The notes beneath the pieces are model-generated. The model made no database searches. It saw only the letters and a program-made list of their open reading frames with translations, and was not told the DNA's origin. Below, piece after piece: positions 1,318 to 62,574 of a stretch of 64,000 nt of DNA (position 1 is its first letter; each line of letters begins with the position of its first letter). Origin of the DNA: Bacteroides uniformis (GTDB lineage Bacteria; Bacillota_I; Bacilli_A; RFN20; CAG-288); assembly GCA_963600815.1 (NCBI GenBank), contig CAVCCX010000004.1, positions 10,070 through 74,069 of the forward strand. Reading direction: 5' to 3'. Position numbers and translations under genes: made by a program.

Positions 1318-1407
1318 TATTTTTCGATATGTTGTTCTTCTTATCTGAAAACAAATGCAGAATTTGTGCTTTTTTCGAATGCTTACGAAATCAAGGAGAT
1401 TGTAGAA

Positions 1408-39554: not shown

Positions 39555-39900
39555 GAAACTCATCTGCATCCAGTGTCCGAGAGGATGCCATCTCGAAATC
39601 GATGATGAAACCCTTGCTGTCACAGGAAATTTCTGCCCGCGCGGCGCAGCGTATGCCAAAACGGAAATCACTCAGCCGATGCGCACCTTGACATCAACGG
39701 TCAAGGTCGTGGGTGGCGAACTTCCGCGCTGCTCTGTCAAGACCTCTGCACCCATCAAGAAGGAACTGATGATGGATGTGATGAAGGAAGTCAACCGCAT
39801 CACAGCTGAGGCGCCGATTGAGATGAATCAGGTGCTTCTGAAGAATGTCCTCTCCACCGGAGCCGACATCATCGCGACCAAGGTCATCAAGAAAGTCTAG
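39547..39900 (+). CDS. DUF1667 domain protein
   Basis: Contains 'CIQCPRGCHLEID...TGNFCPRGAAYAKTEITQPMRTLTSTVKV'. It is the third member of the usual trio. Confidence 0.75.
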   Translation: MIKKLICIQCPRGCHLEIDDETLAVTGNFCPRGAAYAKTEITQPMRTLTSTVKVVGGELPRCSVKTSAPIKKELMMDVMKEVNRITAEAPIEMNQVLLKNVLSTGADIIATKVIKKV

Positions 39901-40550
39901 TTCGTCCTCTTCTGCAATTCTGAGAGCTGATTCTCCAGTTTCGTGATTTCTTCCTGAAGCTGCATCAGCTCTTTTCTTTTCCTGTTCTTTTCATACGAAT
40001 AAGTCAGGATGTGGTTGAGGGTGTATTCTTCAATTTTTCTGAGAATGCGAATGGAGCAGCAACCCATGATTTCGATGACACGATTCTTGCTGACCCATCG
40101 TACGCCATCCAAAAGAACTCCTGTGTTTTCCTGAAAGCCATCTTCTTTATATCCATCGAGCACGTCGGAATATCCCTTTCCGAATTTCTTGCTCGTGCAG
40201 GGTGCGACAAAAAGAAAATTCTTCGTCTGGGAGAGGACAACGGCCGGATGGGGATAGGAGAATTCATAGCCGAAGTTCATGAAACCAAAATCGAGAATCA
40301 CGATGTCGCCTCTCTTGTAGATTCTTTCTTTTCCATAGCAGATGGCGTTCTTGTCATCCAGATAATGCGAGATGGAATTGATGACCTGTCCCATCTCGTA
40401 GGCGCTGAGATGGCTTAGGTATTCCTCGAAATTGTCCATCGCCTTCTTGTAGTAGGGCGAGAGCGTCCTTATCTCGCACCCTTTGATGGTTTTGTTTCCT
40501 TCAATCTGCCTGTAGATGTTTTCGACTTGCTTTTTATTGATTTTTTCCAT
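39897..40550 (-). CDS. MazF/PemK-like domain protein with an ~80-aa N-terminal extension and a C-terminal coiled coil
   Basis: Residues ~78-183 ('RGDIVILDFG...YPHPAVVLSQTKNFLFVAPCTSKKFGKGYSDV...GVLLDGVRWVSKNRV') align by eye with MazF ('GDLIWVDFDP...HRPAVVLS...CVPCTTQSKGYPFEV...ALADQVKSIAWRAR'). Confidence 0.55.
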   Translation of the reverse strand: MEKINKKQVENIYRQIEGNKTIKGCEIRTLSPYYKKAMDNFEEYLSHLSAYEMGQVINSISHYLDDKNAICYGKERIYKRGDIVILDFGFMNFGYEFSYPHPAVVLSQTKNFLFVAPCTSKKFGKGYSDVLDGYKEDGFQENTGVLLDGVRWVSKNRVIEIMGCCSIRILRKIEEYTLNHILTYSYEKNRKRKELMQLQEEITKLENQLSELQKRTN

Positions 40551-44591: not shown

Positions 44592-44598
44592 AAAATAG

Positions 44599-44633
44599 AC
44601 CGATCCTGTTTGCTTCCGGGGTCGGTTTTTTTT
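44599..44633 (+). terminator. Rho-independent terminator
   Basis: Stem accgatcc/ggggtcggt (one G-U pair) followed by a T8 run. Confidence 0.7.
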
Positions 44634-44675
44634 GATGCTTTTTATATGAAAGTTTGTGTATTCTAACATAAGTTA

Positions 44676-44705
44676 TTGACATCTAACTTTTAGGCTTGGT
44701 ATAAT
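44676..44705 (+). promoter_or_regulatory. Consensus promoter TTGACA-18-TATAAT
   Basis: -35 at 44676-44681 and -10 at 44700-44705. It lies 40 nt upstream of the ABC operon ATG. Confidence 0.65.
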
Positions 44706-44706
44706 T

Positions 44707-44736
44707 CTTTAGTTACTTAGTGATAACTAACTAAAG
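44707..44736. promoter_or_regulatory. 30-bp near-perfect palindrome (13-bp arms matching 12/13, 4-bp spacer), a candidate operator
   Basis: Sequence is ctttagttactta-gtga-taactaactaaag. It starts 2 nt after the -10 box and spans the predicted transcription start. Confidence 0.5.
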
Positions 44737-44744
44737 AGAACCCT

Positions 44745-46805
44745 ATGTTACTCAAACTCAAGAATATCGGCAAGATTTATAACTCGAACGACATACTGAC
44801 AATCGGTGTGAGAAATATCGATTTGGAATTCGACTACAATGAATTCGTCACGATCGAAGGTGAATCCGGCTCAGGAAAATCCACGCTTCTGAATGTCATC
44901 GCCGCAAATGATACCTATGAAGAAGGCGAACTCTATTTTGCAGGCGAGGCGACTTCACATTATTCCTCCTCTGATTGGGAGAAATACCGCGAGAACAATA
45001 TCGCCATGATCTTCCAGGATTTCAACATCATCGAAAACCTCACGGTCATCGAGAATGTCGAATTGGCCTTGTTTCGCATTGACGATACCAAGGAAAGAAA
45101 GAGAATTGCCACTCAGCTCATCGAGAAAGTCGGTTTGAGTAAACAAATGCACCATAAAGGTTCCCATCTCTCCGGCGGTGAGAAGCAGCGCTGCGTCATC
45201 GCACGTGCCTTGGCCAAGGATTCTCCAATCATCTTAGCGGATGAACCCACAGGGAACCTCGATTCCAAAGCATCAAGAGAAGTCGCCAAGATTCTCAAGG
45301 ATGTCTCAAAAGACAAACTCGTCATCGTCGTCACTCACAATCCGGAATTCTTCAAGGAATATGCCACAAGAAGAATCCTCATCTCCGATGGGAAACTCAA
45401 ACAGGATGAGATAATCCAGAAACCGGAAAAGAGTGAAATCCATCATGAGGAAAAAACGACAAGCCGAAAACTGAAATGGAAGAACACCTTCCTTCTTGGC
45501 TTCATGAACTATAAGTCGAGACCGAAATTCTCCACGCTGATGAGCATCGCCCTCTGCTGCATCGCCATCACCTTGTTTGCAGTTCTTCAGATTGTCAATT
45601 CCTTTCTTCTTTCTCCAATCACGAAGACACTGGATGATGTCGGTGTCACTGGGAAAATGATTGTTTCGAACACAAGCGGATATGTCGAACAAGAAAAGCT
45701 CGATGAAATCTGCTTTTCGACCGGTGCTTCCTATTTCATGTATAACCGAGAACTTTCGGAATTTACTATCCAGGTTCCCAAAAAGGAAAATATGTATAAG
45801 GACTATGAAGTGACCTGCATCTATGATCCGCTTCATCATGCCGTGGAGGAAAAACAAGGCCTTCTTGTTCTTCCGAAAGCCTATCAGGATGATGCCGAGA
45901 AGATTGTCGAAATCATCCAGGGGGCCTCATCGAGCATTTCGAAGATCGATGTCTCCATTTCTCTTGAGGAGACAAATCTGAAACTCTATCTCTCCTATGA
46001 CAACATGGAGACGAACGGAAATAAGATCAAGGCCATCAATTCGAAGGTGAAAATCTCAGAGAACGAGACAAGAATCTATACCTTCGAAAAGAATGCTGAG
46101 CTCGAAGATGGAAATGTCAACCTGGTCAATTCGACCTATTATGATGTCAAGGGAAAATACCTCACGACGGAAATCTCTTCCTCGAAGATTTTCATGGTCA
46201 ACGATGATACGAAAAAAGATCAGACGGTGGATGGGGTGGTGGTTGAATTAAGTGAGAATGATTATGCCCAAATCTTCGAATCGACTTCGCTGAGCAAACA
46301 ATCGGCCCTCTATTTCGATGATGATGAGATGGCCAAGTCGGCCCTGGAAAAACTGCCGCAGGGCTATATCGGAATGCTTTCGAATTCCACCCTCTATGTC
46401 TCCAATGCCGGAAACGTCTTCATCTATGATCTTCTCTATTATGGATGTCTTATCTTGGCAAGCGTCATCCTGGCTGCAGTCCTGTTTGTCATCTTCATGC
46501 GGACAATCAAGATCTATCAGTCGGATTTTGCAATCTATAAGACATTGGGCATTCCTTCCTCGGTCTCAAAAGGTGCTTTGTATATTCAGATGGTTCTGAC
46601 CTTCCTTCCGACATTGATTCTTCTTCCCCTCATCTCCTATTTCTCCACCATGATCAAAGGACTCTCCTTATCCTTCATCAGCGTCGGAAACTATTTCTTC
46701 ATCGAAGTGCTCATTCTTCTGATTGTCTTCTTTGTTGCTTATGGATTCTACAAGAACATGAATCGCTCGAAGATATCCCATTTGCTCAGGAGGGGTTCAA
46801 AATGA
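44745..46805 (+). CDS. Fused ABC ATPase / MacB-FtsX-type permease (NBD, TM1, ~280-aa ectodomain, 3 TM)
   Basis: Contains 'GESGSGKST', 'LSGGEKQRCVIARA' and 'IILADEPTGNLD'. The FtsX-type motif 'DFAIYKTLGIPSS' follows TM2. Confidence 0.85.
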   Translation: MLLKLKNIGKIYNSNDILTIGVRNIDLEFDYNEFVTIEGESGSGKSTLLNVIAANDTYEEGELYFAGEATSHYSSSDWEKYRENNIAMIFQDFNIIENLTVIENVELALFRIDDTKERKRIATQLIEKVGLSKQMHHKGSHLSGGEKQRCVIARALAKDSPIILADEPTGNLDSKASREVAKILKDVSKDKLVIVVTHNPEFFKEYATRRILISDGKLKQDEIIQKPEKSEIHHEEKTTSRKLKWKNTFLLGFMNYKSRPKFSTLMSIALCCIAITLFAVLQIVNSFLLSPITKTLDDVGVTGKMIVSNTSGYVEQEKLDEICFSTGASYFMYNRELSEFTIQVPKKENMYKDYEVTCIYDPLHHAVEEKQGLLVLPKAYQDDAEKIVEIIQGASSSISKIDVSISLEETNLKLYLSYDNMETNGNKIKAINSKVKISENETRIYTFEKNAELEDGNVNLVNSTYYDVKGKYLTTEISSSKIFMVNDDTKKDQTVDGVVVELSENDYAQIFESTSLSKQSALYFDDDEMAKSALEKLPQGYIGMLSNSTLYVSNAGNVFIYDLLYYGCLILASVILAAVLFVIFMRTIKIYQSDFAIYKTLGIPSSVSKGALYIQMVLTFLPTLILLPLISYFSTMIKGLSLSFISVGNYFFIEVLILLIVFFVAYGFYKNMNRSKISHLLRRGSK

Positions 46806-49030
46806 TCAAAGTATCCCATCTCTCAAAATCCTATAAGACTGGCTTGAGGAAAACAAAGATTCTGAACGATGTTTCCTTCACGCTTCCGGAAAAAGGATTG
46901 TTCGCCATCTTCGGAAAATCCGGTTCGGGAAAAACAACGCTTCTCAATATTCTAGGCGGACTTGATAAGCAGGATGAAGGAGAAGTCTATATCGATGATG
47001 AAAAAATCACGAATGCCAATCGCGATAAGATCCGCAATCGGAAAATCGGATTCATCTTCCAAAACTATTATCTCGAATCGAATTCGACCATCGGCGACAT
47101 CCTGGCCCATCAGATGCGTATCGCAGGATTCACATCCGAGGAGGAAATCAAAAGAAGAAGCGACATCGTTCTTTCCTTGGTCGATCTGAAGAAGTATGAA
47201 AAGAAAAGCTCGGATGCCCTCTCGGGCGGACAGAAGCAGAGAGTCGCCATTGCCCGCGCCCTCATCAAGGGGTCAGAAATCATCCTGGCGGATGAACCGA
47301 CTGGAAACCTTGATAGCCAGAACACAATCAAGGTCATGGACATCCTAAAGGAAATCTCCAAGACGAAATTGGTCGTCCTTGTCACCCATGAAACAAGTCT
47401 CATCCATAAATATGCCGATGACCATATAGAGCTCATCGACGGAAAGCTTGTGGAGAATACAATCGTCGAGGATGTCAAAGGCTATCAGTTTGCCAAAAGC
47501 GAACAGGTCGAATCCTTCGATTTCCAGCAGAACGATAAAGGAAAGACGGGAAAACTCTTCTCCCTGAAGGATATCTTCTCCAAAGCACAGCCGAAAGAAT
47601 CCAATCGACTCAAGAAGGTCTTCATTTCCATCATGGCCATCTATGCTGTCTGTCTTGGATTTTTGCTCAACAGAGCCTATACGACGGCATCGGTACATAA
47701 AAGCGTGAATCAGAATGCGCTCTATACGAATCTCTCGATGTATTCGGAGCTTCCGATGCTTGATCAGAATGACTATGACAGCATCGATTTCTTCGAACTC
47801 AACATGCGTGAAGCCATCTTCTCTTTTGAGAACATCTCCTCCATCAAGGGCGTGAATGAAAAATATGCCCCGAAGCCACTTGAGGAAACAACGACGTTTT
47901 CTTCTCTCTATGGGAATATGCCATCCTCCAATCAGGTCCTGATCACAAGAGGCCTTGCCAAGCAGATCAAGCACGATCTCAGAAATGAAGATCTCAGCAA
48001 GGATGATGGGCTTCTCTTGATGAAATTCGATGACGACTATTCGATTTCCGGCATCGTGGAAGAGGATGATTTGGCTGTCTATTTCAATAAGCAGGATTAT
48101 GTGAACTATCTTGGCATCTACAACGATCTCAAGATTGTCGACAATGGAAATATCTTCTTAAAAAGCAATTATGCCTCGATGACCTACAGTGCCACGATTC
48201 AGGTCTATGAAGGGAAAAAAGAACTGAAAAATAATCAGACCATCATCGATATCTCAAGAAATTCCCTCTACAAGATGATGGAAGATACCTCACAGGGTGA
48301 CTACTACGTGGAAGAAGCCAATAAGAAAATTGTCGAGCTCACGACGGCCATCTATATCGAAAATAGCGAGATGTATGTCAAATACTTCAATATCACAAGG
48401 GAAAGCATTTCGACAGACCTTGTCATTTATGTCACGAAGGAAGCAATGAAGAATCTCTTCATCTATCTGACACCGAATCTCGAAACTTTGGGAAACGATA
48501 CCTCGACGACCTACTACTTTGAAATCACAACCTCAAAGGAAGAACAATTGCAGAATCTCAAGGAACGATTCAAGAAAAGAGGCGTCAACACCATCGATAT
48601 TGCTTCTCTCTATCGAAAGGAAGATGAAGAGACCTTGAAGAAGAATCTTCAGATTGTCTATTTCTTCCTTCTTGGCGCTCTCTTGCTTTATCTCATCTAC
48701 TATTTCATGGAAATGTCAGACAGCACGAAGAATAGCAAGGAATACGGCATCTATCGAGCCATTGGCGTCAACAAGTCGAATCTTCTCTTCAAGGAGATGA
48801 TGCGATCTCTTTCGAAGAATGTCACCGTGATGGCTCTCATGATGCTCCTTTCCACGACACTCTGTTCCATCTACTTCATCATCTGCAATTCGTCGATTCT
48901 TCTCTTCCTTCTTCTCTCTTTGGGTCTCTTTGCTGCTGGTTCACTCTTGATGATACTTGTCTCTTTGATTCCCTATCTCTTTGTGGTCTATAAGATGCCA
49001 AGCGAAATCATCGCACGATACGATCTCTAA
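46802..49030 (+). CDS. Paralogous fused ABC ATPase / MacB-FtsX-type permease (~320-aa ectodomain)
   Basis: ATGA overlap with the upstream gene and an AGGAGGGG RBS. Contains 'GKSGSGKTT', 'LSGGQKQRVAIARA', 'IILADEPTGNLD' and 'EYGIYRAIGVNKS'. Confidence 0.85.
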   Translation: MIKVSHLSKSYKTGLRKTKILNDVSFTLPEKGLFAIFGKSGSGKTTLLNILGGLDKQDEGEVYIDDEKITNANRDKIRNRKIGFIFQNYYLESNSTIGDILAHQMRIAGFTSEEEIKRRSDIVLSLVDLKKYEKKSSDALSGGQKQRVAIARALIKGSEIILADEPTGNLDSQNTIKVMDILKEISKTKLVVLVTHETSLIHKYADDHIELIDGKLVENTIVEDVKGYQFAKSEQVESFDFQQNDKGKTGKLFSLKDIFSKAQPKESNRLKKVFISIMAIYAVCLGFLLNRAYTTASVHKSVNQNALYTNLSMYSELPMLDQNDYDSIDFFELNMREAIFSFENISSIKGVNEKYAPKPLEETTTFSSLYGNMPSSNQVLITRGLAKQIKHDLRNEDLSKDDGLLLMKFDDDYSISGIVEEDDLAVYFNKQDYVNYLGIYNDLKIVDNGNIFLKSNYASMTYSATIQVYEGKKELKNNQTIIDISRNSLYKMMEDTSQGDYYVEEANKKIVELTTAIYIENSEMYVKYFNITRESISTDLVIYVTKEAMKNLFIYLTPNLETLGNDTSTTYYFEITTSKEEQLQNLKERFKKRGVNTIDIASLYRKEDEETLKKNLQIVYFFLLGALLLYLIYYFMEMSDSTKNSKEYGIYRAIGVNKSNLLFKEMMRSLSKNVTVMALMMLLSTTLCSIYFIICNSSILLFLLLSLGLFAAGSLLMILVSLIPYLFVVYKMPSEIIARYDL

Positions 49031-49050
49031 ATAAAAAGGAAAAACACAAA

Positions 49051-52000
49051 ATGAAAAAAAGAACACTCTTATCCGTTATTTTCTTAGCCGGTTCCCTTCT
49101 TTCCACAGGAGCCATTGTCTCCTGCTCGAAGACAGAAACAAGTCAGACGACTCAAACGACTGAAAAGGTGAGTGAAAAAACCGTCGCCTTCAAAATCCAG
49201 GACGAAAATGGAGAATGGAAGAATTACGTCGAACCGCAGGTCATCAAGGATGGAAAAGTCTCCCTTCCGGCAAATCCGAGCAAGACATATTACACTTTCC
49301 GTGGCTGGTTTTTGGATACCGGATGGGTCAAGGAATTCAAGAATGAAGATTTGACAGAAGGGGTTGTTGTCTATGCCTATTTTGTTGCCGATGAAGTCAA
49401 TATCGTCATCAATGGCGAATCCCAGGGAACAAGAGATCTGATCGACGTTGTCAATGGAACCTACAATCCCGGAGAAGGACTCACATTCGATGGCTGGTAT
49501 ACCGATGCCGACTGCAAGGTGAAATATAAGGAAGGCGATCCTGCGAAAACCCTGTATGCCCAAAGTGTGGCTACCATCACCTTCAACAACGGATATGAAG
49601 ATTGCTATGTCACGAAAATCAAGCCGGATACTCTCTTGATGAATCCAAGCCTCGACACCTTGGAAATCGATGGCGTGAAGACGACCGTCGAGGAAAACAA
49701 GATTGTCAAATCCTATATGTCAAATGAAGATATCTCCTATCTTGATGAGAATGGAAATGAAATCGACTTTTCGAAAGCCATCTCGAAGAACATGACCATC
49801 AAGGTGGCCTGGAAATCTCCATTCCTGAAGTACAAGATGTGTGACAATGAATCCGGAAACCAGATTCTTCTCTGCCTTGGCACATTTGGCAATCTGAATG
49901 GTTCGGATGTCAGTAAGGCAAAACTGGAAGATGTCCCGGTCATCTCTTTCCCTTCGAAAGTCACACTGATGGACAAGGATGGAAACAAGACCGTCCATGA
50001 TGTCAAAGGTGCCTATGTTTTTGATAACAAAATCTTTGATTCCACTGCCCTAAAGAAGGTCGTTGTGCAGGAAGGCGTGAAATTCATCCGCGGTTTCTCC
50101 TCGACAAGCGGCACTTCCGGTGTGCATGAAATCTCCCTGCCATCGAGTCTCAGAATCATGCAGGATTGCTTCAACAATATGAACTTCACGAAGGATTCCG
50201 TGAAGATCCCTGAGCATGTCGAAGCCATCTATGACTGCTTCTTCAAGGGCGCGACGGTCAACTACAACGATGAATCCCTGACCTTCTATACCGGCACGAG
50301 CTATGATTTTGACATCGCTATTCCGGACAGCGTGAAGAGCCTTTCCATTGTCCCGCTTAATTTCCGCTTCTCTTCGAAATCATCTTTCAAGAATGACGGA
50401 AAGATGATCACTCAGACCACAGACAAGGGCAAAGTCCTTATCTCCTATAATGAAATCGATGAACATGGCGTCATCAAAGTTCCTGAAGGAATCCAGGGCA
50501 TCCAGGTCGGAACATTTGTCAATCGCACGGACTTGAAGAAACTTGTTCTTCCTAAGACTTTCTCTTTTGTCAACTACAATCTTCCCTTGACGGACTTCCA
50601 GGACTGCTATGGATGGTATCAGGGAAGTTACACCTGCCATGAATGCTATTTATATAGTTCCACGCTCTCTGACAACGATTTTGCCTACAATGCAAGGCTT
50701 GTCATCTCCAATCTGGATACGATGACATACCTCGTCTTCCAAGGGGATGTATCCGAAGAGGTCTATAAGGCATTTGCCGGAAACGCCTCTACATGGGCCT
50801 ACGCAACTGGTTCTTTCACGGCCTGCAATGATGAAGTCTATCAGGATATCCAGACAATTTCCCTCAAAGAGACTTCAACACCGAAGGTGAAAGTGAATTT
50901 CCATGATGACTATAGTGAGAGGACCTATACGGCAACGATTGATAGAACAAATCAGAATGCCATCACCTATGATGAAATCTTGACGGCTCTGGACAATTCC
51001 AATTCGACATCCTATAAGTCTTTGATCGATGCAAACAAGATGAAAATCACAGAGACCTTGAACATGCTTGAGGACTACAATATGTCTTCTGCAGTCAAGA
51101 TGAATCTCTATCTCGATATCACCGCTGACTATTCCCTTGATAAGGCAGGTGTCATGTATGCTGTTGAAAACAACGAAGTGACCATCACCGGATTCGATCA
51201 GGAGACGGCTATCCAATTGGGCACAGATTCCTATGGCATCATCATTCCAGATACGATTGACAATAAGAAGGTCACTTCCATCAAGGAAGGTGCTTTCAAG
51301 GAGAAAGGAAACATTGAGGTTGTCCGCCTCGGAAAGAATATCACTTCCATTGGAAAGAATGCGTTCAATAGTGCCATTTCCCTGAAAAAGGTCGATTTCA
51401 ATGACGCAAAACTCGTTTCGATTGGAGAGGGGGCCTTTGAAGACACAGCCTTGACGAGTCTTTCCTTCTCGATTGCCTCTCTCAAGTCCGTTGGTGATTC
51501 CGCCTTTAAGATTTCGACATTGCAGAAATTCATCCCGGTCAATGGAGAAGAAAGCCGTGATGTCAGAAATGTCCAGAATGGTGAATTCTATTTTGTTCCA
51601 TATCAGACAATCAATGAAAATTGGACTGCTTTGATCACATCCTATCTCATTCTCAACCAGAAAGTCCGTTCTTCTGTGGATAGTGAAAAGAACGTCACGA
51701 CCTATGATGTCAAGATGTACGCCTTTGCCAACAATAGCGGCATCGATGAAATCAAGATCGGCGAAGATCATTCTGCTGATGGCTATCTTGTCCGCTATGA
51801 AGTGATGAAAGGTGCAATGACGGGTCTTGCATTTTCTTCGTCTGTCCATCTTGACCTCATCTCGGTATCGAAGATCCATAGCAATGCCATCAGTGATACC
51901 ACCATCACTCGAAAAGGCATCCGATATGATGCGACGAATCTAGGAATCACAACGACGGTCTCGACTATCGAAAACCTCGTGACGGCTTTGCCGGATGTTT

Positions 52001-52062
52001 TCGAAGCCAATTGGATCGATAATTACGATTCCATCAAATCTGTGAAGGTTGCCTCTCTCTAA
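49051..52062 (+). CDS. 1003-aa lipoprotein with Listeria-Bacteroides (Flg_new) repeats and BspA-type leucine-rich repeats
   Basis: Lipobox 'GAIVSC'. Flg_new motifs 'YYTFRGWFLD' and 'LTFDGWYTDADC'. LRR_5-like 'VTSIKEGAFKEKGNIEVVRLGKNITSIGKNAFNSAISLKKVDF'. Confidence 0.75.
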   Translation: MKKRTLLSVIFLAGSLLSTGAIVSCSKTETSQTTQTTEKVSEKTVAFKIQDENGEWKNYVEPQVIKDGKVSLPANPSKTYYTFRGWFLDTGWVKEFKNEDLTEGVVVYAYFVADEVNIVINGESQGTRDLIDVVNGTYNPGEGLTFDGWYTDADCKVKYKEGDPAKTLYAQSVATITFNNGYEDCYVTKIKPDTLLMNPSLDTLEIDGVKTTVEENKIVKSYMSNEDISYLDENGNEIDFSKAISKNMTIKVAWKSPFLKYKMCDNESGNQILLCLGTFGNLNGSDVSKAKLEDVPVISFPSKVTLMDKDGNKTVHDVKGAYVFDNKIFDSTALKKVVVQEGVKFIRGFSSTSGTSGVHEISLPSSLRIMQDCFNNMNFTKDSVKIPEHVEAIYDCFFKGATVNYNDESLTFYTGTSYDFDIAIPDSVKSLSIVPLNFRFSSKSSFKNDGKMITQTTDKGKVLISYNEIDEHGVIKVPEGIQGIQVGTFVNRTDLKKLVLPKTFSFVNYNLPLTDFQDCYGWYQGSYTCHECYLYSSTLSDNDFAYNARLVISNLDTMTYLVFQGDVSEEVYKAFAGNASTWAYATGSFTACNDEVYQDIQTISLKETSTPKVKVNFHDDYSERTYTATIDRTNQNAITYDEILTALDNSNSTSYKSLIDANKMKITETLNMLEDYNMSSAVKMNLYLDITADYSLDKAGVMYAVENNEVTITGFDQETAIQLGTDSYGIIIPDTIDNKKVTSIKEGAFKEKGNIEVVRLGKNITSIGKNAFNSAISLKKVDFNDAKLVSIGEGAFEDTALTSLSFSIASLKSVGDSAFKISTLQKFIPVNGEESRDVRNVQNGEFYFVPYQTINENWTALITSYLILNQKVRSSVDSEKNVTTYDVKMYAFANNSGIDEIKIGEDHSADGYLVRYEVMKGAMTGLAFSSSVHLDLISVSKIHSNAISDTTITRKGIRYDATNLGITTTVSTIENLVTALPDVFEANWIDNYDSIKSVKVASL

Positions 52063-52092
52063 ATCATTCAGAATATAAAAAAGGAGTCATCT

Positions 52093-55000
52093 ATGAAAAG
52101 ACTCGCTTCCATAAAAAGATGCCTGATGCTGTTTTCTTTCTCGTTGGGCGTCTATGCACTTTCTTCCTGCACATCCTCGATTTCAGATCCCATCGATCTC
52201 ATCATCCGGAATTATGGGGACAAGGAGTTCAAAATCTCCTTCAGTTCCTATAATCTGGATGAGCCTCTCAGCGATCTAATTTATACCGCCAACAATATCC
52301 CAAAGCTTCCCACGCCGGGCAAAGTCGGCTACCGGTTTTCCGGTTGGTATTTTGACGAAGCCTTTATCACACCCTATAGCAAGGAATATCTCTACACCAA
52401 GATGAGCAATGTCACCTTGTATGCCAAGTGGGAGAAAGAGGAATTCATCAATAACGGCATCTATGAGATCGAATATGAGGCCAAGATTCTCGAAAACACC
52501 ATCAACAAAGGAAAACTCGCCGATCAGTATGGGTATCTGGAATTCCCAGACCTCATCGTCAAGGATGAGACCTATATCGAAAAGAATGAGAATGGGCTTT
52601 TCCTTCGCATCCAATATGATATGAAATACCATTGCCCGACGATCGATGATGAGGGAAATCTCGGAACGTTGACGCTCAAGGTCACAGACAGCAATTCGAG
52701 AATCTCGGATTCGGAAAGCATCATCGATCGAACCGGCACGATTGAGACAATCTATTATGATTTCTCCTCCTGCAATGTGAAAGACAGCATCTACCTCAAC
52801 GTCGAATTCTACAACTGGAATGCCAAGCTCGACAAGGAGAGCGATCGCGTCTATACGAAAGTCGGCTATACGGTCGAATTCAAGATTACGAAATTCATCG
52901 GATATACAACCTCCTATGCCGATGCGAATGACCGCCTGGAAGACGGATACTATCTTGTCAAGACGCATTATGCTTCCCTAAATAAGCAGGCGAGCATGCT
53001 GGATAGTTTCAATCCGGTTTATTCCTACATCTATGCAAGAAACGGCCATTATCAGCTCATCAAGCCGATGAATGTCTACAATTCGGATATCATCGGCGAT
53101 ATGTCTATAAGCGACTATAACCATGTCAAAACCGGCTATGCGCGGGATTTTGCTTATTTCACCTTCGACCAGAGCATCGTCGCGAGCGATGAGGACGTGA
53201 ATGATAATTTCGCAAGTGTGGACTGGGCAAGTTTCCTCAATGCACAGTCTTTCTCTTCTCTGACCTATGAATTCGATAAGAACACCGGGAAATATTACTA
53301 TACATTCGATTTAGGAAATAAAGCGAATGTCGACCTTCTTCTTGTGGGTGCCTCCACAGGTGCCATGACCGAGATGTTCAACATGGGGCCGACCTATAAG
53401 AGACTTGTCATCGACTATTCCTCTATGGTGAAAGTCAATTCCATCGACTATGTTCCCCTGTCTGGCGATTCTTATTGCTATACGACAAAGCAGGCTTTCT
53501 ATCTTTATACTGATTTTGTATCCCTGAAAGGGAATACGATCTATGATGCAGAACAGGCCTATGGCGCCTATAATGAACTTGTCAATGTCTTCTATTCCTC
53601 AAATGACGGAAAGAAAATCAATGAACTCTATTCCACGAAAGTGACTATAAGACCTGTCACAACGACTTCTATCCAGGAAAACAAGGGAAATATCTTTGTT
53701 TTTGAAGTCATCAGTGAATGCTATGGCTATGATCCAAGAACAGCCAAGGCTCCGCTTTATGCCGATACGATCCAGTGGCAGACTTTCTCGACATATTCCC
53801 AGCGTGTCACCAAAAGAGTCGAGATGGGCTATGAGGCGAATAGGAATGAGAATATCGATCTCTATTCTCTTTTCCGAAGCAAGGTCGATGATACTCTTCT
53901 CGATCGAAAGCTCGCCTATCACGTCTACAGACTGAAAAATGGAAATGAAGTCGATTTCACCTCTGAAATCGAACTGAACCTCAGCGAAGAGAACACCTTC
54001 AAATATACATCCGACTTGGCCTTGTATCTGGAAGGGGAATTCGACTCGAATAAGAAATCCCTCCTTCTCACAATCGTCAAGAGGGAAGAACCTGAAATCG
54101 AAATCGTCGATCAATACGAATATGAGGATGAAGACTATGACATCGCTTGGTGCTATGACCAGGACAGCGGATGCTATCTTTCTTCGAAATCCTATTTCAA
54201 GGGGGACAAAGTCCATATTCCGGAAGTGAAATACACTTCCTATGGAAACGAGTACACCTCTCTTGATGCCTATGATTCCCTCAATGATGTCTATCATATG
54301 AACCAGGAGAGAATCAGCATCTATGACTACACCAATCAGGTGTATTCGAAAGTCAATTACGACTACGAAGTCTGGAATGACTCTCTTTTCGATATGACGA
54401 GTGAAACCATGGTCGTCACCTATCAGCTTGTCGACCGCTATGGATACAATCGATCTTTGACCTTCCTATACAAAGGCGAGGAAAAAGGAACCTATCAGAT
54501 TTTTCGGAACGGCGAAGAAATCTATTCCGGAAAACAATATTATTTTGCCGATGGAACAAGAAGAAGCATCAGCGTGAATAACAAATCCGCAAGGGAATAT
54601 ACTTCCGCCTATGACGCCATCCACACTTCCTATACCCTCAAAGTTGGCAATGACGAATATCCCTTGAATCTTGTGAAATTCTCCTGTTATACAAAAGAGA
54701 ATACAGTGGAAGGCACAACGGAAGAGGAACTCTCTTCGGCCATCGATGGTGCAAATTATGCACTTCTCTATTTTGAATACCGCCATGACGAAGATACCTA
54801 TTCGACCTATATGGTCTATAATCTGAAACTCAATGGAAAGAATTATTCGGCCTATTCGATTCTGAACAACAAGGAAGTCTTCACGGATACGACCTATTCG
54901 TTCAACAACATCATCATGATGGATCAGTATGGAACGAACCTTTCCACCTGCTATCCGGAATTCAGAAAATATTCCAATGGCTACTATACGAATGTCTCTG

Positions 55001-56046
55001 CTTCGGATATGACCAATCAGAACAATATCAGCTTCAAATTCCTGACAAGCGGAAGATACAAGGTCAGTTATACTCTCTCCTTTGTGGAGGATGAAAATGA
55101 AGATACTGTTCTCTATATCGGAAAGAAATCCATCACCTTAAGTGAGGAATTCATCGTTCACTCCTTGGATGAGGAAATCACTGTCCAATATAGAACGGAT
55201 TCTTCGCACCCGTTCAAGGATTCCCTTCCCAATGTCACAGTTCTATCCAATGGCGATCAAGTCTATACGACGAGAATCAAGCAGAGCGAAGAAAACACAG
55301 CCCTGGATAGTTCTTGTTTTGCTTCTTCGAAGGATAATCTCTATTCCTGGGGCTATCAGAAGAAAAACGGACAAATTCAGGAAACCTATCGTCCGGGACA
55401 GGTTTTAAGCAATGTCGGGGCCAAGCTCAATACGACCAAACCTGTTTTGATTGCCGTATGGGATGAAGGTCTCAGCGTCACGGCTCAGTACACCGTTTCT
55501 GGTGTGACAAAGGTCATTTCGACGAAGACGTATTACAAGTCCAACGGGAAATATATGTTCAATCTTGGAGACTTCATCTTCCCGGTTCCTGCTGGATGCA
55601 CCTTTGTCGGATGGCGTTGTTCGAAGGCTGTTTTCTATGAGGGACATGGCGATGAAATTGTCTATTCCAATGAGACAAGCTATACGAACAACATGTCCTT
55701 CGCATTTGATGAATCCATCACCATCGAAGCTATACTCAAGGAACCTTTGAAAGTGAAATTCTATACCTATAATTCGACTCTGGAAGGAAGTGTCTCGATT
55801 CGTGATCTATCAGAGATGTCTCTTTCTGCCCAGGAAATCAATGAGGATGTCAGCCTGAAGGATGGACTTTCTTCGGCATTCCTGAAATACCTCAAGAAGA
55901 AGGAAAATCAGGAAGGGTTCAAGTATTGGGCAGTCTATCATAACGGAACACTTGAAAGAATCTCTTCCTTGGATGACTTTGTCGTCAGGAAGGAATATCT
56001 ATCCGATGGCATGATTCGCATTGTTGCGGTCGGTTTGGAGGCGTGA
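52093..56046 (+). CDS. 1317-aa Tyr-rich lipoprotein with terminal Flg_new-type repeats and an unassigned central region
   Basis: Lipobox 'YALSSC'. Contains 'VGYRFSGWYFDEAF...LYAKWEKE' and a C-terminal 'CTFVGWRCS'. AAGGAG RBS. Confidence 0.7.
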   Translation: MKRLASIKRCLMLFSFSLGVYALSSCTSSISDPIDLIIRNYGDKEFKISFSSYNLDEPLSDLIYTANNIPKLPTPGKVGYRFSGWYFDEAFITPYSKEYLYTKMSNVTLYAKWEKEEFINNGIYEIEYEAKILENTINKGKLADQYGYLEFPDLIVKDETYIEKNENGLFLRIQYDMKYHCPTIDDEGNLGTLTLKVTDSNSRISDSESIIDRTGTIETIYYDFSSCNVKDSIYLNVEFYNWNAKLDKESDRVYTKVGYTVEFKITKFIGYTTSYADANDRLEDGYYLVKTHYASLNKQASMLDSFNPVYSYIYARNGHYQLIKPMNVYNSDIIGDMSISDYNHVKTGYARDFAYFTFDQSIVASDEDVNDNFASVDWASFLNAQSFSSLTYEFDKNTGKYYYTFDLGNKANVDLLLVGASTGAMTEMFNMGPTYKRLVIDYSSMVKVNSIDYVPLSGDSYCYTTKQAFYLYTDFVSLKGNTIYDAEQAYGAYNELVNVFYSSNDGKKINELYSTKVTIRPVTTTSIQENKGNIFVFEVISECYGYDPRTAKAPLYADTIQWQTFSTYSQRVTKRVEMGYEANRNENIDLYSLFRSKVDDTLLDRKLAYHVYRLKNGNEVDFTSEIELNLSEENTFKYTSDLALYLEGEFDSNKKSLLLTIVKREEPEIEIVDQYEYEDEDYDIAWCYDQDSGCYLSSKSYFKGDKVHIPEVKYTSYGNEYTSLDAYDSLNDVYHMNQERISIYDYTNQVYSKVNYDYEVWNDSLFDMTSETMVVTYQLVDRYGYNRSLTFLYKGEEKGTYQIFRNGEEIYSGKQYYFADGTRRSISVNNKSAREYTSAYDAIHTSYTLKVGNDEYPLNLVKFSCYTKENTVEGTTEEELSSAIDGANYALLYFEYRHDEDTYSTYMVYNLKLNGKNYSAYSILNNKEVFTDTTYSFNNIIMMDQYGTNLSTCYPEFRKYSNGYYTNVSASDMTNQNNISFKFLTSGRYKVSYTLSFVEDENEDTVLYIGKKSITLSEEFIVHSLDEEITVQYRTDSSHPFKDSLPNVTVLSNGDQVYTTRIKQSEENTALDSSCFASSKDNLYSWGYQKKNGQIQETYRPGQVLSNVGAKLNTTKPVLIAVWDEGLSVTAQYTVSGVTKVISTKTYYKSNGKYMFNLGDFIFPVPAGCTFVGWRCSKAVFYEGHGDEIVYSNETSYTNNMSFAFDESITIEAILKEPLKVKFYTYNSTLEGSVSIRDLSEMSLSAQEINEDVSLKDGLSSAFLKYLKKKENQEGFKYWAVYHNGTLERISSLDDFVVRKEYLSDGMIRIVAVGLEA

Positions 56047-56047
56047 T

Positions 56048-57286
56048 ATGAAATTCTTATTTTTGGCTTTTTCTCTCTTCGTGCCTTTTTCTCCAATCAA
56101 AAAGGCAGAAGAGATGCCTCTAAGTGATTATTCGATCTATACGGCTTCTTACGAGATTGGTGGAACCAATCAGATCGGAAAGCATATGATCGGAAAATAT
56201 TTCGATTCCACCGCCAGAATCTTCAAGGAAGATGATCTCTATTTTCTTTCATTGACCCTTTTGGATAATCAGGCTTTGACGGATCTGAACCTCTCGGTTT
56301 CTTCCTTGAAGAGCGGTGTCAAAGAAGAAATCGATGGGAAAAAGACTGTCTATACGATGACTCTTTCCTATGAAGATATAAAGAAAGAGATTTCTGTCTC
56401 AGGCAATGTCAACAAGATGGGAATGGATGTCTCTTTTTCAATCAAACCGAATTTTTCTTCTCTTGAACTGACCTCTGAAAAAGTCGATGAGACAGAAGAA
56501 TATCCTGCCCAGTTTGTCCCTGAACTCCATTTTGATTCTCTAGGCGATATCGAGACCACATTGAATTCCTACTATATGATTCCGAATGTCAAAGGATTCT
56601 TCGATGGAAAAGACCTGCCTGTGGAAGTGAAAGTGACATCCCCAAGCGGAGAGGAAGTTCAGATAGAGGAGAATAAAATCCGTGTCAGCGAGCTTGGAGA
56701 CTATTCTCTTGCCTATAAGACATCGACAAAGGAATATAAGACCAATCTTGGAAATGATTCCTACGCTCTTGAGACGATCACACTGAAAAGCAATGCTCAG
56801 GAAAGCGACCTAGTGAAGGTCAATGACATCAATCATGTTCTTCCAAAGGGTACAATTGTCCAGTGTCAGAGAATCCATTCCGGTTCGACCTATGAGAAGA
56901 TTTCTTCTCTTCTAGAGAATATCTCGGATCATTATGAGGTCACGGATATCTCGCTGATGGATCAAAACGGAGATAAACTGAATCTATCTGGTACGATCCA
57001 GTGTCTTATCAATACAAATCCGAACTATGATCGAAACAAGGTGAAAGTCGCTTTTGTTTTGGATGATAAGTTGGAACCTGTTTCTTCAGAAAGCTATGGA
57101 AGATATATCCGTTTCGAAAGCCAGAAAACGGGAACATATGTCATCTATGTCGAAGGTGTGAAATCGAGTGTGAATCTTTCTCTTCTTATCACGCTTTCTG
57201 TTGTCGGTGGCGTTCTTGTTCTTGCATTGATTCTCTTTCTGATTCTATTTCGATTAAGGAAAAAGAAGAAAAGGCAAATCGCCTGA
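56048..57286 (+). CDS. Secreted protein with a NEAT-like beta-sandwich (tentative) and a C-terminal TM anchor plus basic tail
   Basis: GGAGG RBS, starting 1 nt after the upstream stop codon. Signal peptide MKFLFLAFSLFVPFSPIKKAEE. 'YEIGGTNQIGKHMIGKYFDSTARIFKEDDLYFLSLTLLDN' is NEAT-like. The C-terminus is 'LLITLSVVGGVLVLALILFLILFRLRKKKKRQIA'. Confidence 0.6.
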   Translation: MKFLFLAFSLFVPFSPIKKAEEMPLSDYSIYTASYEIGGTNQIGKHMIGKYFDSTARIFKEDDLYFLSLTLLDNQALTDLNLSVSSLKSGVKEEIDGKKTVYTMTLSYEDIKKEISVSGNVNKMGMDVSFSIKPNFSSLELTSEKVDETEEYPAQFVPELHFDSLGDIETTLNSYYMIPNVKGFFDGKDLPVEVKVTSPSGEEVQIEENKIRVSELGDYSLAYKTSTKEYKTNLGNDSYALETITLKSNAQESDLVKVNDINHVLPKGTIVQCQRIHSGSTYEKISSLLENISDHYEVTDISLMDQNGDKLNLSGTIQCLINTNPNYDRNKVKVAFVLDDKLEPVSSESYGRYIRFESQKTGTYVIYVEGVKSSVNLSLLITLSVVGGVLVLALILFLILFRLRKKKKRQIA

Positions 57287-57303: not shown

Positions 57304-57343
57304 AAAAATACCCTTGGCCATTACACTCAAGGGTATTTCATTT
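57304..57343. terminator. Hairpin between convergent genes, probably a bidirectional terminator
   Basis: 10-bp stem aaataccctt/aagggtattt flanked by A and T runs. Confidence 0.55.
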
Positions 57344-57350
57344 GGTTTGT

Positions 57351-57830
57351 TTATTTCTTGTCTTTCTTCAAGAAGAAGGAAGAAATATCTTCTGAATAGC
57401 AGTCAATATAGGGAGTCTTTTCATCATCGGAAAGAAGAAAGACAGGGGAATGCTGTTTATCGCCGATGAGTTTATCGACATCGTTCTTGAAGGCAGGATA
57501 GTCATCATAGGAATTGACGAATTCGTTCATCTTGACGATAGGATATTCGCCTTTCCTGTAGCCCAGGATGATGCCTCTTTTCAGGGTGAAGAAATATTGC
57601 TTCACGGCATCAAGGAAGTTTCTTCCTTCATAGATGACGACATGCTCATAGATGTCTTTATCGATTTCCAGGTAGATTTCTTCATTCTTGATATGCGCGT
57701 AGCAATGAAGAAGAAGGAAATCGTAGTTCTCGATGGCATCACCAAAGGAAAGAAGGAAAGACTCCATATCCAGATAGCCTTCTTTCAGGGAAAGATTGAT
57801 TCTTTTTGTCATAGCAATTGATTTTATCAC
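57351..57830 (-). CDS. Hypothetical protein (153-159 aa)
   Basis: ORF only, starting at GTG 57830 or ATG 57812. It lies 25-43 nt downstream of the AAA+-like gene with no intervening hairpin. Confidence 0.5.
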   Translation of the reverse strand: MIKSIAMTKRINLSLKEGYLDMESFLLSFGDAIENYDFLLLHCYAHIKNEEIYLEIDKDIYEHVVIYEGRNFLDAVKQYFFTLKRGIILGYRKGEYPIVKMNEFVNSYDDYPAFKNDVDKLIGDKQHSPVFLLSDDEKTPYIDCYSEDISSFFLKKDKK

Positions 57831-57855
57831 TAAGAGAAAAAGATTTCATCAAAAA

Positions 57856-58956
57856 TCAGTCATGATTGTCGTTGACGATGGAGACATCCTTACCTAAGGA
57901 TGCTTCGAAGGCGTCGACATTTTTCTTGAATTCGAGGTCATCGACCGGTCCTAAATCGGCGATGATGCGCTTCATCATATCCGCTGTGATGATCGCATCT
58001 TTTCCGTCCTTGGCATAGAGATGGGAGGTCGAGACGATTCTTCGGCAGAGTCGGGAGATTTCCTTGCTGACAAAACCATGGGTGAATTCGACGAGTTTGT
58101 CGATTTCATTCTCGTTCTCAAAGACGATGCCTTTGAGTCTTTCTTCCATCATGCCACGGCGGGTATGTCTGTCTGGATGATGAACGCGGAGAAGATCATC
58201 GAACATGCCTTTCTGGAAGGCTTTCATGGTCATTTTGTCCATGGCCGGCGTCGAGGCGATGAAAAGAATGTTGAGATTCTTTTTTCGTACTCTCTTGAGT
58301 TCCTTCTTGAGAAGCTTGAGGAAAATCTTGGCTGTGGCCTTGCTTTCGTCATTGTCTTCCTTCGGGAAGAAGGCGACCGGCTTGGTGAAATAGAAGACGA
58401 CATTGTCTTTTTCCTCAGCCATCTTGAAGAGACGCTGGAAATTCGCCTTGGTGTTCTCGCTGTAGGGTGAGAAATTGGCGATTGGGTTGATGTAGTAGGG
58501 TGTGGCATGAAGCTCATGGATGAAGGACTGGATGAAGACTTTCTTGGAGACACCTTCCGGTCCATAAAGAAGAATCGCCGATTTCTTTCGCGACTTCATG
58601 TTGTGATTCTTCCATGGCTCGATCACTTCACGGGTGACATATTCCTTGATTTTATCCTCACCGATGAATTTGTCGAATCCCTTCGGACGCTTTCTGTTGG
58701 TGAGCTTGTCGGCTTCTTCCTTGCTCATATGGAGCTTGGAAAGGATTTCCTGGGCCTTTTCTTCATCTTTTTGGGCGAGGGAAGTGTATTTCTCACTCGC
58801 TTCCTTCTCCAGGGTGAGATTGGCAATATCATTTGCTAAGTCATAGCAGGCGATATAATTCTGATAGGCAGTCGGATAGTCCTGAATCGAAAAAGCCATT
58901 TCGGCAGCGGATTTGTGGTTTTGGTAATCGTAGGTCTTTTCATCAATTTCTGACAT
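57856..58956 (-). CDS. MIT-like / classic-clade AAA+ protein with degenerate catalytic motifs (predicted pseudo-ATPase)
   Basis: The AAA scaffold is recognisable ('FIGEDKIKEYVTREVIEPW', 'AILLYGPEGVSKK', 'NILFIASTPAMDK...MFDDLLRVHHPDRHTRRGMMEERL', 'GFVSKEISRLCRR'). Walker A reads GPEGVSKK and the Walker B position reads VVFYFTKP, with no D-E pair. Confidence 0.7.
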   Translation of the reverse strand: MSEIDEKTYDYQNHKSAAEMAFSIQDYPTAYQNYIACYDLANDIANLTLEKEASEKYTSLAQKDEEKAQEILSKLHMSKEEADKLTNRKRPKGFDKFIGEDKIKEYVTREVIEPWKNHNMKSRKKSAILLYGPEGVSKKVFIQSFIHELHATPYYINPIANFSPYSENTKANFQRLFKMAEEKDNVVFYFTKPVAFFPKEDNDESKATAKIFLKLLKKELKRVRKKNLNILFIASTPAMDKMTMKAFQKGMFDDLLRVHHPDRHTRRGMMEERLKGIVFENENEIDKLVEFTHGFVSKEISRLCRRIVSTSHLYAKDGKDAIITADMMKRIIADLGPVDDLEFKKNVDAFEASLGKDVSIVNDNHD

Positions 58957-58985
58957 AGGATCTAACCCCTTTCTTGATTGATTTC

Positions 58986-59013
58986 ATTATATCATAAAAA
59001 TAAAAGATAACAA
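58986..59013 (-). promoter_or_regulatory. Promoter TTGTTA-16-TGaTATAAT (extended -10) for the AAA+-like gene
   Basis: The minus strand reads ttgtta(16 nt)tataat, with TG at -15/-14. It lies ~30 nt upstream of ATG 58956. Confidence 0.5.
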
Positions 59014-59044
59014 ATAATCTTTCTTTTTCTTGATAAATAAACAT

Positions 59045-59072
59045 AAAAAAGGGCTATGTTTTTACATAGCCC
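59045..59072 (-). terminator. Rho-independent terminator after the repeat lipoprotein
   Basis: Stem gggctatg/catagccc with a 6-nt loop and a T6 run on the minus strand. Confidence 0.7.
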
Positions 59073-59094
59073 AAGAGGATGATAAAAGAAATGA

Positions 59095-62265: not shown

Positions 62266-62549
62266 TTATCATTCTCCTATATGAAATAGTCTTTTCGACT
62301 ATAGAGGCAAAAAAACCAATCTGCTTTCCTTTCTTATCTGCTTTTTTCAGTTTCTTTTAAGATTTGTCTTTTCGGAACTATATTTTCTTGGTGCAAAAGG
62401 TGTGAAGCGTTATCAAGATTTTTTAAGTTTTAATTAAGGCTTTTATCATATAAAATAAATTTTGTAAGCGGTTCCGAACGAAAATGAATTCTTAAAAGAA
62501 CCTTAAAGAATTCAGAAAAGTCTTAAATTCTCTTTAAGTTTTCTTCATG

Positions 62550-62574
62550 AAAAAGAGGCAGATTTCTCTGCCTC
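62550..62574 (-). terminator. Rho-independent terminator overlapping the stop codon of the upstream paralog
   Basis: Perfect 8-bp stem gaggcaga/tctgcctc with a GAAA loop and a T5 run on the minus strand. Confidence 0.75.

Follow-up and report, generated by a model that had tools for sequence, protein, structure and literature searches.

In the current view, NEAT-based haem capture is a downhill process driven by affinity, and only the membrane importer spends ATP. The iron-regulated NEAT/leucine-rich repeat (LRR)-type surface proteins that capture haem or haemoproteins include IlsA of Bacillus cereus. ATP-binding cassette (ABC) proteins of type VII are known for other jobs, namely, moving lipoproteins, activating hydrolases, and expelling toxins, and not for nutrient capture. 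The sia operon of S. pyogenes comprises shr (NEAT-LRR-NEAT), shp (NEAT), siaABC, siaDE (ABC), and siaFGH, which encodes the S, T, and A components of an energy-coupling factor (ECF) transporter, and is repressed by MtsR, a member of the DtxR family (PMC6593403). The NEAT domains of this species ligate haem via a pair of Met residues (Met390/Met475 in Shr NEAT1 and Met997/Met1107 in Shr NEAT2, with a Met pair also in Shp), the loss of both of which abolishes haem binding (PMC12796733). Here, we describe a five-gene operon, g1 to g5, in a 64,000-nucleotide stretch of contig CAVCCX010000004.1 (assembly GCA_963600815.1), hereafter referred to as the window. The operon encodes two MacB-like, ATPase-fused ABC proteins, two large lipoproteins, and a NEAT-fold protein, and may constitute an iron-regulated haem-capture module, a reading on which our judgement is evenly poised.

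The locus resembles the sia and hts systems in its DtxR-family repression, predicted here from operator and regulator sequences, in a NEAT domain whose candidate ligand is Met instead of Tyr, and in an LRR surface receptor (PMC6593403, PMC12796733). In about 20 related loci, the likeness extends to adjacent genes that encode an exporter-type ABC pair and an ECF transporter and that share the control of the module. Unlike sia/hts, the module includes neither a haem importer dependent on a solute-binding protein (SiaABC/HtsABC) nor sortase signals, and the known systems offer no counterpart to the putative MacB-fold heterodimer or to the 1,317-aa g4 product. A further difference is that the ECF, CydDC-like, and regulator genes are not linked to the module in this window.

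The five genes form one well-delimited transcription unit, as judged from their tight junctions, the flanking terminators, a single strong promoter, and the convergent orientation of the next genes. All are encoded on the forward strand. The first two genes, g1 (44745–46805; 686 aa) and g2 (46802–49030; 742 aa), overlap by 4 nt and encode the two ATPase-fused half-transporters, the assignment of g1 to the MacB fold being based on Pfam ABC_tran, PDB profile matches, an AlphaFold 2 (AF2) model, and Foldseek. They are followed, after a gap of 20 nt, by g3 (49051–52062; 1,003 aa), encoding a lipoprotein with Flg_new/InlB B-repeats and LRRs; after 30 nt, by g4 (52093–56046; 1,317 aa), encoding a Tyr-rich lipoprotein; and after 1 nt, by g5 (56048–57286; 412 aa counted from an ATG with GGAGG located 7 nt upstream), encoding the NEAT-fold protein. 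The 5′ boundary of the unit is the intrinsic terminator of alaS-ruvX, the genes that Pfam identifies upstream of the operon (44597–44628, forward strand; 12-bp stem followed by a T-run). Between this terminator and g1 lies a sigma-70 promoter (44676–44705, forward strand) of the form TTGACA-18-TATAAT with an extended TG, which agrees with the consensus at 12 of 12 positions and was the sole site above the shuffle background in a promoter scan of 15 kb. Downstream of g5, a terminator hairpin (57306–57338, forward strand) with an 11-bp perfect stem, an 11-nt loop, and a T-rich tract was recognized by sequence and folding (−15.3 kcal/mol, z −3.63); the terminator scan overlooked it owing to the 11-nt loop. 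The genes 3′ of this hairpin are convergent with the operon. The original prediction, made from the sequence of the window, had described five co-directional open reading frames (ORFs) spaced by −4, 20, 30, and 1 nt between one promoter and one terminator, and the present analysis confirmed each of these elements.

That prediction had also put forward the linkage of the five genes across genomes as a check, and the ABC pair proved not to occur mostly without these neighbours. A scan with a profile of the g1 permease, in which each species was represented by one genome, yielded 64 loci, all from metagenome-assembled genomes (MAGs) of uncultured gut or rumen Bacillota assigned to Anaeroplasmataceae, Acholeplasmatales, “Clostridium sp. 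CAG:307,” Christensenellales, and Oscillospiraceae. Two exceptions aside (L049 and L057), g1-g2-g3-g4 is kept wherever the downstream DNA suffices, and g5 is kept where it lies within reach. The order g1-g2-g3-g4(-g5) was found in approximately 46 loci from distinct genomes, with identities to the window proteins falling to 43% for g1 and to 25% to 30% for g3 and g4. Downstream of every intact g1 with enough DNA behind it, g2 is the adjoining gene. Even L061, where the fourth protein is too diverged for tblastn, has successive ORFs of 697, 747, 1,021, and 1,309 aa. The only change of order that was seen is in L057 (13702–20111), where a g4-like gene precedes a g3-like one. In L049 (173–2098), the g1 homologue is split into ORFs of 204 and 431 aa, is truncated at about residue 620, and is followed by unrelated genes; it appears from its sequence to be a decayed copy without partners and the only clear exception to synteny. 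Searches started from the other end of the operon gave the same picture: two g4 homologues whose genomic context was looked up, P0251 and P0256, which are among the most divergent full-length ones (27% to 28% identity), lie in the same five-gene order, and this order was also recovered by a search from g5. The genes flanking the five vary from locus to locus.

Several contigs with the module belong to MAGs labelled Alistipes onderdonkii, Paludibacteraceae, Prevotellaceae, Acidiphilium, and Elusimicrobiaceae (L009, L010, L012, L032/L034, and L038). The g1 products of L009, L010, and L012 are 76% to 78% identical to the window copy and those of L032, L034, and L038 are 54% to 56% identical; these modules cluster with Bacillota loci, and the labels are probably binning or labelling errors.

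Alignment of the DNA upstream of g1 across the loci revealed a palindrome, RGTTAG-N6-CTAACY, which is present in 1 to 4 copies just before the gene. In the window, three operator-like boxes surround the promoter: box 1 (GTTTGTGTATTCTAAC; 44652–44667), with one mismatch to GTTAG-N6-CTAAC; box 2 (GTTATTGACATCTAAC; 44672–44687), which overlaps the −35 hexamer; and box 3 (CTTAGTGATAACTAAC; 44716–44731), between the −10 hexamer and the ribosome-binding site. When up to one mismatch to GTTAG-N6-CTAAC is allowed, there are three matches in the 64 kb, all of them in the operon promoter, against 0.34 expected, and none of 100 shuffles reached three. The position of box 2 is kept in L007, L008, L009, L011, and L012, and 14 loci of the window clade (L001–L003, L007–L009, L011–L014, L016–L018, and L070), as well as L050, have a box located −26 to −30 from the start codon. 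Across the dataset, at least one box occurs in the 250 nt preceding g1 in 39 of 56 loci, and the density of boxes is 6.2 per kb upstream of g1 versus 0.043 per kb elsewhere, a 146-fold difference. Loci devoid of the canonical box mostly have symmetric variants of it, either GTTCG-N6-CGAAC or GTAAGC-N4-GCTTAC.

The regulators encoded next to the module are short DtxR/MntR-family proteins. Those of L004–L006, L020, L031, L034, L040, L044, and L062 carry the motifs EMYL and C-x-x-E-H, which we take to form the Fe(II)-type site Met10/Cys102/Glu105/His106 and not the Asp/Glu site found in MntR; the DtxR-like gene of L065 encodes neither motif. Compared with the classical DtxR box (TTAGGTTAGCCTAACCTAA), the palindrome has similar half-sites at a wider spacing. 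Furthermore, the half-site variant tracks the recognition helix of the adjacent regulator, GTTAG being found with SKPSVSRAV and GTTCG with AKSSVSRGVN, and this covariation, observed in a small sample that is not phylogenetically independent (L004, L006, L020, L031, L040, L044, and L062), suggests direct recognition and co-evolution. The operator and regulator sequences thus point strongly to repression of the module by a DtxR-family metal sensor, with expression predicted to rise when iron is scarce. Directly upstream of g1, three loci encode a protein of 117 to 127 aa (L004 9577–9930, L006 9265–9636, and L016 8270–8653). The 117-aa protein of L004 weakly matches MntR-family models and has no equivalents of Met10 and Cys102 (EMYL/CxxEH), and the proteins of L006 and L016 are linked to it by tblastn alone (46% and 26%, respectively); this small protein may be a degenerate or accessory regulator.

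In approximately 20 loci of a Christensenellales-like branch, the module is immediately preceded by a recurring block that encodes one or more DtxR-like repressors, a YgbA-family protein, a CydD/CydC-like exporter-fold ABC pair (374.9 and 318.8 bits, just under the cut-offs), and an ECF transporter. The latter consists of an S component with a weak Trep_Strep match, a CbiQ-type T component, and a fused double ATPase. Operator pairs of the same kind are found ahead of the recurring block and of the regulator genes, making module and block one regulon. The genes behind other copies of the operator are mixed and encode regulators, an ABC ATPase, methyltransferases, and an AraC regulator, a set that shifts the balance little in either direction. 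Import of haem by an ECF transporter under iron control has been established for LhaSTA of S. lugdunensis (PMC7299338) and proposed for L. sakei (bioRxiv 10.1101/864751). The module-linked ECF transporter of many relatives, whose genes lie directly upstream and share the operator, is a candidate counterpart of these systems; the window has no ECF genes.

The product of g5 consists of a signal peptide, a NEAT-fold domain (residues ~28–145), two Ig-like domains, a C-terminal transmembrane (TM) helix, and a KKKK tail. Its AF2 model has a predicted local distance difference test (pLDDT) score of 86, and Foldseek aligned the first domain with IsdX2-N5, Hbp2-N2, IsdX1, and Shp at TM scores of 0.71, 0.68, 0.65, and 0.60, respectively, with IsdA, IsdB, IsdC, IsdH, and Hal also being matched and the probability reaching 1.0 for IsdX2-N5, Hbp2-N2, IsdX1, Shp, IsdA, IsdC, and Hal. 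The model displays the features of the NEAT fold, including the beta-sandwich, the lip helix, and the beta7-beta8 hairpin, and many g5 orthologues carry a precomputed match to PF05031. The TM-anchored NEAT-like protein of the original prediction is therefore upheld by structure prediction, though its own Pfam score lies below the cut-off. Two Met residues stand out. Met47 (56186–56188), in the lip helix and within the motif GxxMIxKYFD, is kept in all 28 orthologues examined, very divergent ones included, and Met124 (56417–56419), at the start of strand 8 in the usual position of the ligand Tyr, is kept in most. They are 77 residues apart versus 85 in Shr NEAT1 (PMC12796733). By analogy with the Shr and Shp domains, we infer that g5 binds haem. 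Met ligation tolerates ferrous haem (PMC12796733), which would suit an anaerobic gut.

In comparison with the Isd system of S. aureus and with HupY of streptococci, the module shares surface proteins with NEAT and/or LRR domains, a kind that in those systems is iron-regulated and captures haem or haemoproteins (PMC6593403 for HupY). It differs from Isd in that g5 has a single NEAT domain, no Tyr ligand of the YxxxY type, and no sortase anchor; the LPXTG signal is absent from the surface proteins of the operon, which are anchored by a lipobox or a TM helix. Neither an importer of the IsdE/F type nor an oxygenase of the IsdG/I type belongs to the unit. The module may thus work in the manner of Isd- or Shr-type haem acquisition without being a member of either.

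Both g3 and g4 encode signal peptides with a lipobox that conforms to [LVI][ASTVI][GAS]C (IVSC with Cys25 in g3 and LSSC with Cys26 in g4), and the lipobox Cys is kept in at least 90% of the orthologues of each. The g3 protein has N-terminal Flg_new/InlB B-repeats and two regions of BspA-type LRRs (Pfam Flg_new and LRR_5), the latter matching PDB entries 4h09, 4gt6, and 4fs7. In g4, Tyr accounts for 9.6% of the residues, and a single Flg_new/InlB B-repeat follows the lipid anchor; this repeat is the sole match of the protein, its core of about 1,200 aa having matched no Pfam family and no PDB sequence. The domain content and lipobox predicted for g3, and the description of g4 as a Tyr-rich lipoprotein with no assignable core, both stood. 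Full-length homologues of g4 are all 1,226 to 1,370 aa long and the remaining matches span the B-repeat only, so that the core appears from sequence to be confined to the g4 gene family. In both lipoproteins, the membrane-proximal part is the best conserved: among g4 orthologues, identity is 65% over residues 27–120, 60% over residues 121–500, and ~40% in the distal part, and among g3 orthologues it is 56% at the N-terminus and 41% to 43% in the remainder.

BspA-type LRRs and InlB B-repeats are typical of adhesins, and the fast divergence of g3 and g4 is like that of host-facing proteins. These observations, together with the conserved linkage of the ABC pair to the surface proteins, would also fit a MacB-like heterodimer that remodels, displays, activates, or sheds three adhesin-type proteins, with iron acting as a cue for the presence of a host and haem not being the substrate, and HupY offers a precedent for an adhesin that is iron-regulated as well (PMC6593403). 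Such a machine would leave unexplained the NEAT fold with its conserved Met and the recurrent, co-regulated CydDC-like/ECF block, and we consider it unlikely. The original prediction of an undescribed envelope machine holds insofar as the unit is conserved and includes a MacB-like ABC pair. With regard to its emphasis on generic remodelling, the DtxR-type operator, the repressor, CydDC-like, and ECF neighbours, and the Shr/Shp-like Met residues point instead to iron-regulated haem acquisition.

We next turn to the ABC pair. The Walker A, Q-loop, LSGGE/Q, Walker B with its catalytic Glu, and H-loop motifs are intact in both g1 and g2, bearing out the complete ATPase domain foreseen for each, and the best NCBIfam and PDB matches of these domains are MJ0796, Spr0694-type proteins, MacB, LolD, FtsE, and BceA. 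The PDB profile alignment of g1 extends through the MacB linker and the first TM helix (5lil residues 43–324). Hydropathy indicates, for both proteins, a first TM helix (TM1), an ectodomain, and then three TM helices, with which the AF2 model of g1 agrees. The ectodomains had been estimated at 280 to 320 aa; the upper value applies to g2 (~320 aa, about residues 296–612), and the g1 ectodomain is smaller (~260 aa). The second TM helix is followed by DFAIYKTLGI in g1 and EYGIYRAIGV in g2, motifs that are conserved among the orthologues. The notion of a paralogous pair holds for the ATPase domains, which are ~38% identical in tblastn cross-hits, and does not extend to the permease halves, which barely align profile to profile (E 0.011).

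A sequence match to known permeases of this class is missing in g1 and marginal in g2. Pfam FtsX (PF02687) did not match g1 even at E ≤ 1, and in g2 it reached E 0.036 over profile positions 3–115 of 120, with 14.5 bits versus a cut-off of 25.5; hhalign of the g1 profile with E. coli MacB aligned the ATPase domain only. The AF2 model of g1 comprises the ATPase domain (residues 1 to ~225), an elbow helix (241–258), TM1 (260–287), an alpha/beta ectodomain (293–553), and TM2–4 (555–673). Beside both stalk helices, it has beta-alpha-beta units after TM1 (304–344) and before TM2 (498–551), which by their placement would fit the definition of the porter subdomain (PMC5985334). In Foldseek searches with this model, full-length MacB of three species ranked first (5gko, 5lil, 5lj7, and 5nik; E 4e-28 to 4e-24; 710 to 740 aligned columns; TM scores of 0.50 to 0.60). 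The MacB/FtsX-type permease of the original prediction is thus retained for its topology and, in g1, its predicted fold, and finds no backing in the Pfam FtsX scores. Since these stayed below the thresholds, “MacB-type” refers here to topology and predicted fold, and it is by architecture and by the fold of the g1 model that we accept g1 and g2 as MacB-fold (type VII) ABC proteins.

Owing to their 4-nt overlap, invariable pairing, unlike ectodomains, and two intact ATP sites, we infer that g1 and g2 form a heterodimer with two sites for ATP. The heterodimeric type VII ABC proposed earlier agrees with the MacB-like architecture, the predicted fold, and the intact state of both ATPase sites. The pair has in common with MacB, LolCDE, FtsEX, HrtBA, and BceAB the ATPase subfamily, four TM helices, a large ectodomain between TM1 and TM2, and the motif after TM2; with MacB in particular, the N-terminal fusion of the ATPase and the full-length match of the predicted g1 fold; and with LolC/LolE, the presence of two unlike permease halves. 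It differs from other type VII ABC proteins in that each half carries its own ATPase, resulting in a predicted heterodimer of full half-transporters, in permease and ectodomain sequences that are not detectably related to solved members and lie below the Pfam FtsX thresholds, and in its partners, which are two lipoproteins and a NEAT protein rather than an adaptor, TolC, LolA, a hydrolase, or a sensor kinase. Among 1.84 billion representative proteins, the permease half of g1 had 98 matches at E ≤ 0.001, about 40 of which are fused proteins of 700 to 800 aa with a g1-like ATPase and other ectodomains; g1-type permeases are a small, deeply divergent branch. The approximately 40 clusters at 50% identity numbered P0338–P0415, with ATPase domains 44% to 57% identical to that of g1, g1-like TM2–4, and different ectodomains, belong to a broader, type VII-like family of fused ABC proteins.

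HrtBA, a MacB-type ABC transporter that handles haem in Gram-positive bacteria (PMC9271180, PMC5985334), raises the possibility that the g1-g2 pair expels haem from the membrane in detoxification, with the NEAT protein and the lipoproteins serving as sinks, and HrtA is indeed among the structural matches to the g1 ATPase domain in Foldseek. Such pumps are induced by haem via dedicated sensors, whereas the DtxR-type operator found here implies induction upon metal scarcity, and neither a two-component system for haem sensing nor an HrtR-like gene adjoins the operon. HrtB, moreover, has a small ectodomain and no partner proteins, and we regard efflux of this kind as very unlikely indeed. The ATPase domains score best against a model for exporters of lactococcin-972-type bacteriocins, though below its cut-off, and Firmicutes relatives of MacB often serve in peptide resistance (PMC5985334). 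The pair could accordingly be an exporter or resistance pump for a metallophore, bacteriocin, or antimicrobial peptide, comparable with PvdT, BceAB, or YknYZ, for which the surface proteins are mere passengers. We hold this to be very unlikely: the operon is not linked to genes for biosynthesis, immunity, a two-component system, or an adaptor, and independent functions would be hard to reconcile with the strict co-inheritance of all five genes over such wide divergence.

As the original prediction had stated, the operon encodes neither a solute-binding protein nor a membrane-fusion protein, and this absence is in keeping with a LolCDE-like system. The ATPase domains score highly against LolD models, the two permease halves differ as LolC and LolE do, and the two lipoproteins are conserved, with an invariant lipobox Cys (in at least 90% of orthologues); one could therefore imagine that the heterodimer pulls the g3 and g4 proteins from the outer leaflet, in the manner of LolC/LolE, and frees them or lifts them off the membrane as haemophore-like scavengers, and that g5 is the acceptor in the membrane. 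No LolA-like carrier is present, the ectodomains have no sequence similarity to LolC/E, and monoderm or wall-less hosts possess no outer membrane to target, which makes extraction of the LolCDE kind improbable in our view.

Under the haem-capture reading, the five genes would encode a surface complex that is made in response to iron scarcity and scavenges haem, or the iron of haem proteins. Under iron-replete conditions, transcription would be blocked by an Fe(II)-sensing repressor of the DtxR family, which would be encoded at another place in the genome and would bind the three GTTAG-N6-CTAAC boxes that flank the promoter and overlap it. The g1 and g2 products would assemble into a heterodimeric MacB-fold ABC in which both ATP sites are active and the two ectodomains differ. 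The lipid-anchored g3 and g4 proteins would place their conserved, membrane-proximal B-repeat modules near these ectodomains, a docking that we propose because the N-terminal parts of both are the most conserved (56% to 65% identity versus ~40%), and their variable distal parts would face outward as receptors. Anchored by its C-terminal helix, g5 would present the NEAT domain on two Ig-like spacers and bind haem through a Met/Met pair, like Shr and Shp. ATP binding and hydrolysis would move the ectodomains, and this motion, passed on to the bound surface proteins, could strip haem from captured haemoproteins, hand haem on, or release the receptors. Haem would then enter through a separate importer, for which the adjacent, co-regulated ECF transporter and CydDC-like pair are candidates in many relatives, and which in this genome would have to lie outside the window. 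The most specific part of this scheme, that the MacB-fold heterodimer is the motor of NEAT-based haem piracy, stripping haem from host or dietary haemoproteins or ejecting lipoprotein haemophores, is put forward tentatively, and we would sooner expect it to be wrong than right.

Several observations weigh against iron-regulated haem capture. On the regulatory side, each of the three boxes in the window carries one mismatch, the canonical box is absent from 17 of the 56 loci, tblastn detected no DtxR-like, ECF, or CydDC-like genes in the 64-kb window even at E 10, and the methyltransferases and the AraC regulator behind other operator copies are not obviously iron-related; the regulators may sense Mn or some other ion in place of iron. 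With respect to g5, the Pfam NEAT (PF05031) score is 28.8 bits versus a gathering score of 32.8, a g5/NEAT profile search of PDB sequences matched nothing, the canonical YxxxY motif is absent, Met47 and Met124 are placed by sequence position and secondary structure rather than by coordinates, and the L026/L050 subclade has the second Met replaced. The AF2 model of g1 is of moderate confidence (pLDDT 73; predicted TM score 0.52), and PDB profile searches with the ectodomain-plus-TM profiles of g1 and g2 matched no solved structure. No solute-binding protein, type II permease, or haem oxygenase was found in the operon or in the window neighbourhood, the window also has no haem importer, and all carriers of the module are uncultured MAGs. 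Finally, we know of no type VII ABC in haem uptake, the sole haem-linked one, HrtBA, being an exporter.

In the literature on NEAT proteins with MacB/FtsX-type ABCs, on NEAT domains in these taxa, and on the Trep_Strep S component, we found no account of a NEAT protein combined with a MacB-type ABC or of this module. If the heterodimer is indeed the motor of haem capture, the operon would represent the first energized extracellular step in haem acquisition by Gram-positive or wall-less bacteria. Energy-coupled extraction of haem, or release of receptors, at the cell surface would then become directly testable in a strictly conserved, iron-controlled operon. It would also give type VII ABC proteins a new job, common to dozens of uncultured lineages of gut Bacillota, and assign a role to a family of 1,300-residue proteins with no known fold. 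Bacteria like the Christensenellales, Acholeplasmatales, and Anaeroplasmataceae are abundant in humans and ruminants and uncultured, and the module would provide a first molecular handle on their iron and haem economy.

Elsewhere in the window, a cluster convergent with the operon (57351–63958, reverse strand) may be a defence-like system or one of another kind not yet described. It comprises genes for a 159-aa protein of unknown nature and for an AAA ATPase of 366 aa, which PADLOC matches weakly to IetA (2.6e-7), followed by ORFs of 1,056 and 461 aa that matched nothing in Pfam or PADLOC. Upstream of the operon, a 217-aa protein (39897–40550, reverse strand), longer than typical MazF, has a PemK/MazF-like toxin domain at residues 79–175, and a 455-aa protein (21897–23264, reverse strand) combines Schlafen AlbA_2, HATPase_c_4, and a TrmB/MarR-like winged helix. 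Two large glycosidases of glycoside hydrolase family 3 (GH3; 1366–4506 and 4666–7593, forward strand) are permuted, with the C-terminal domain ahead of the N-terminal catalytic domain. They belong to a region devoted to carbohydrate use, in which GH28, GH43, phosphoketolase, and FGGY kinase genes are also present.

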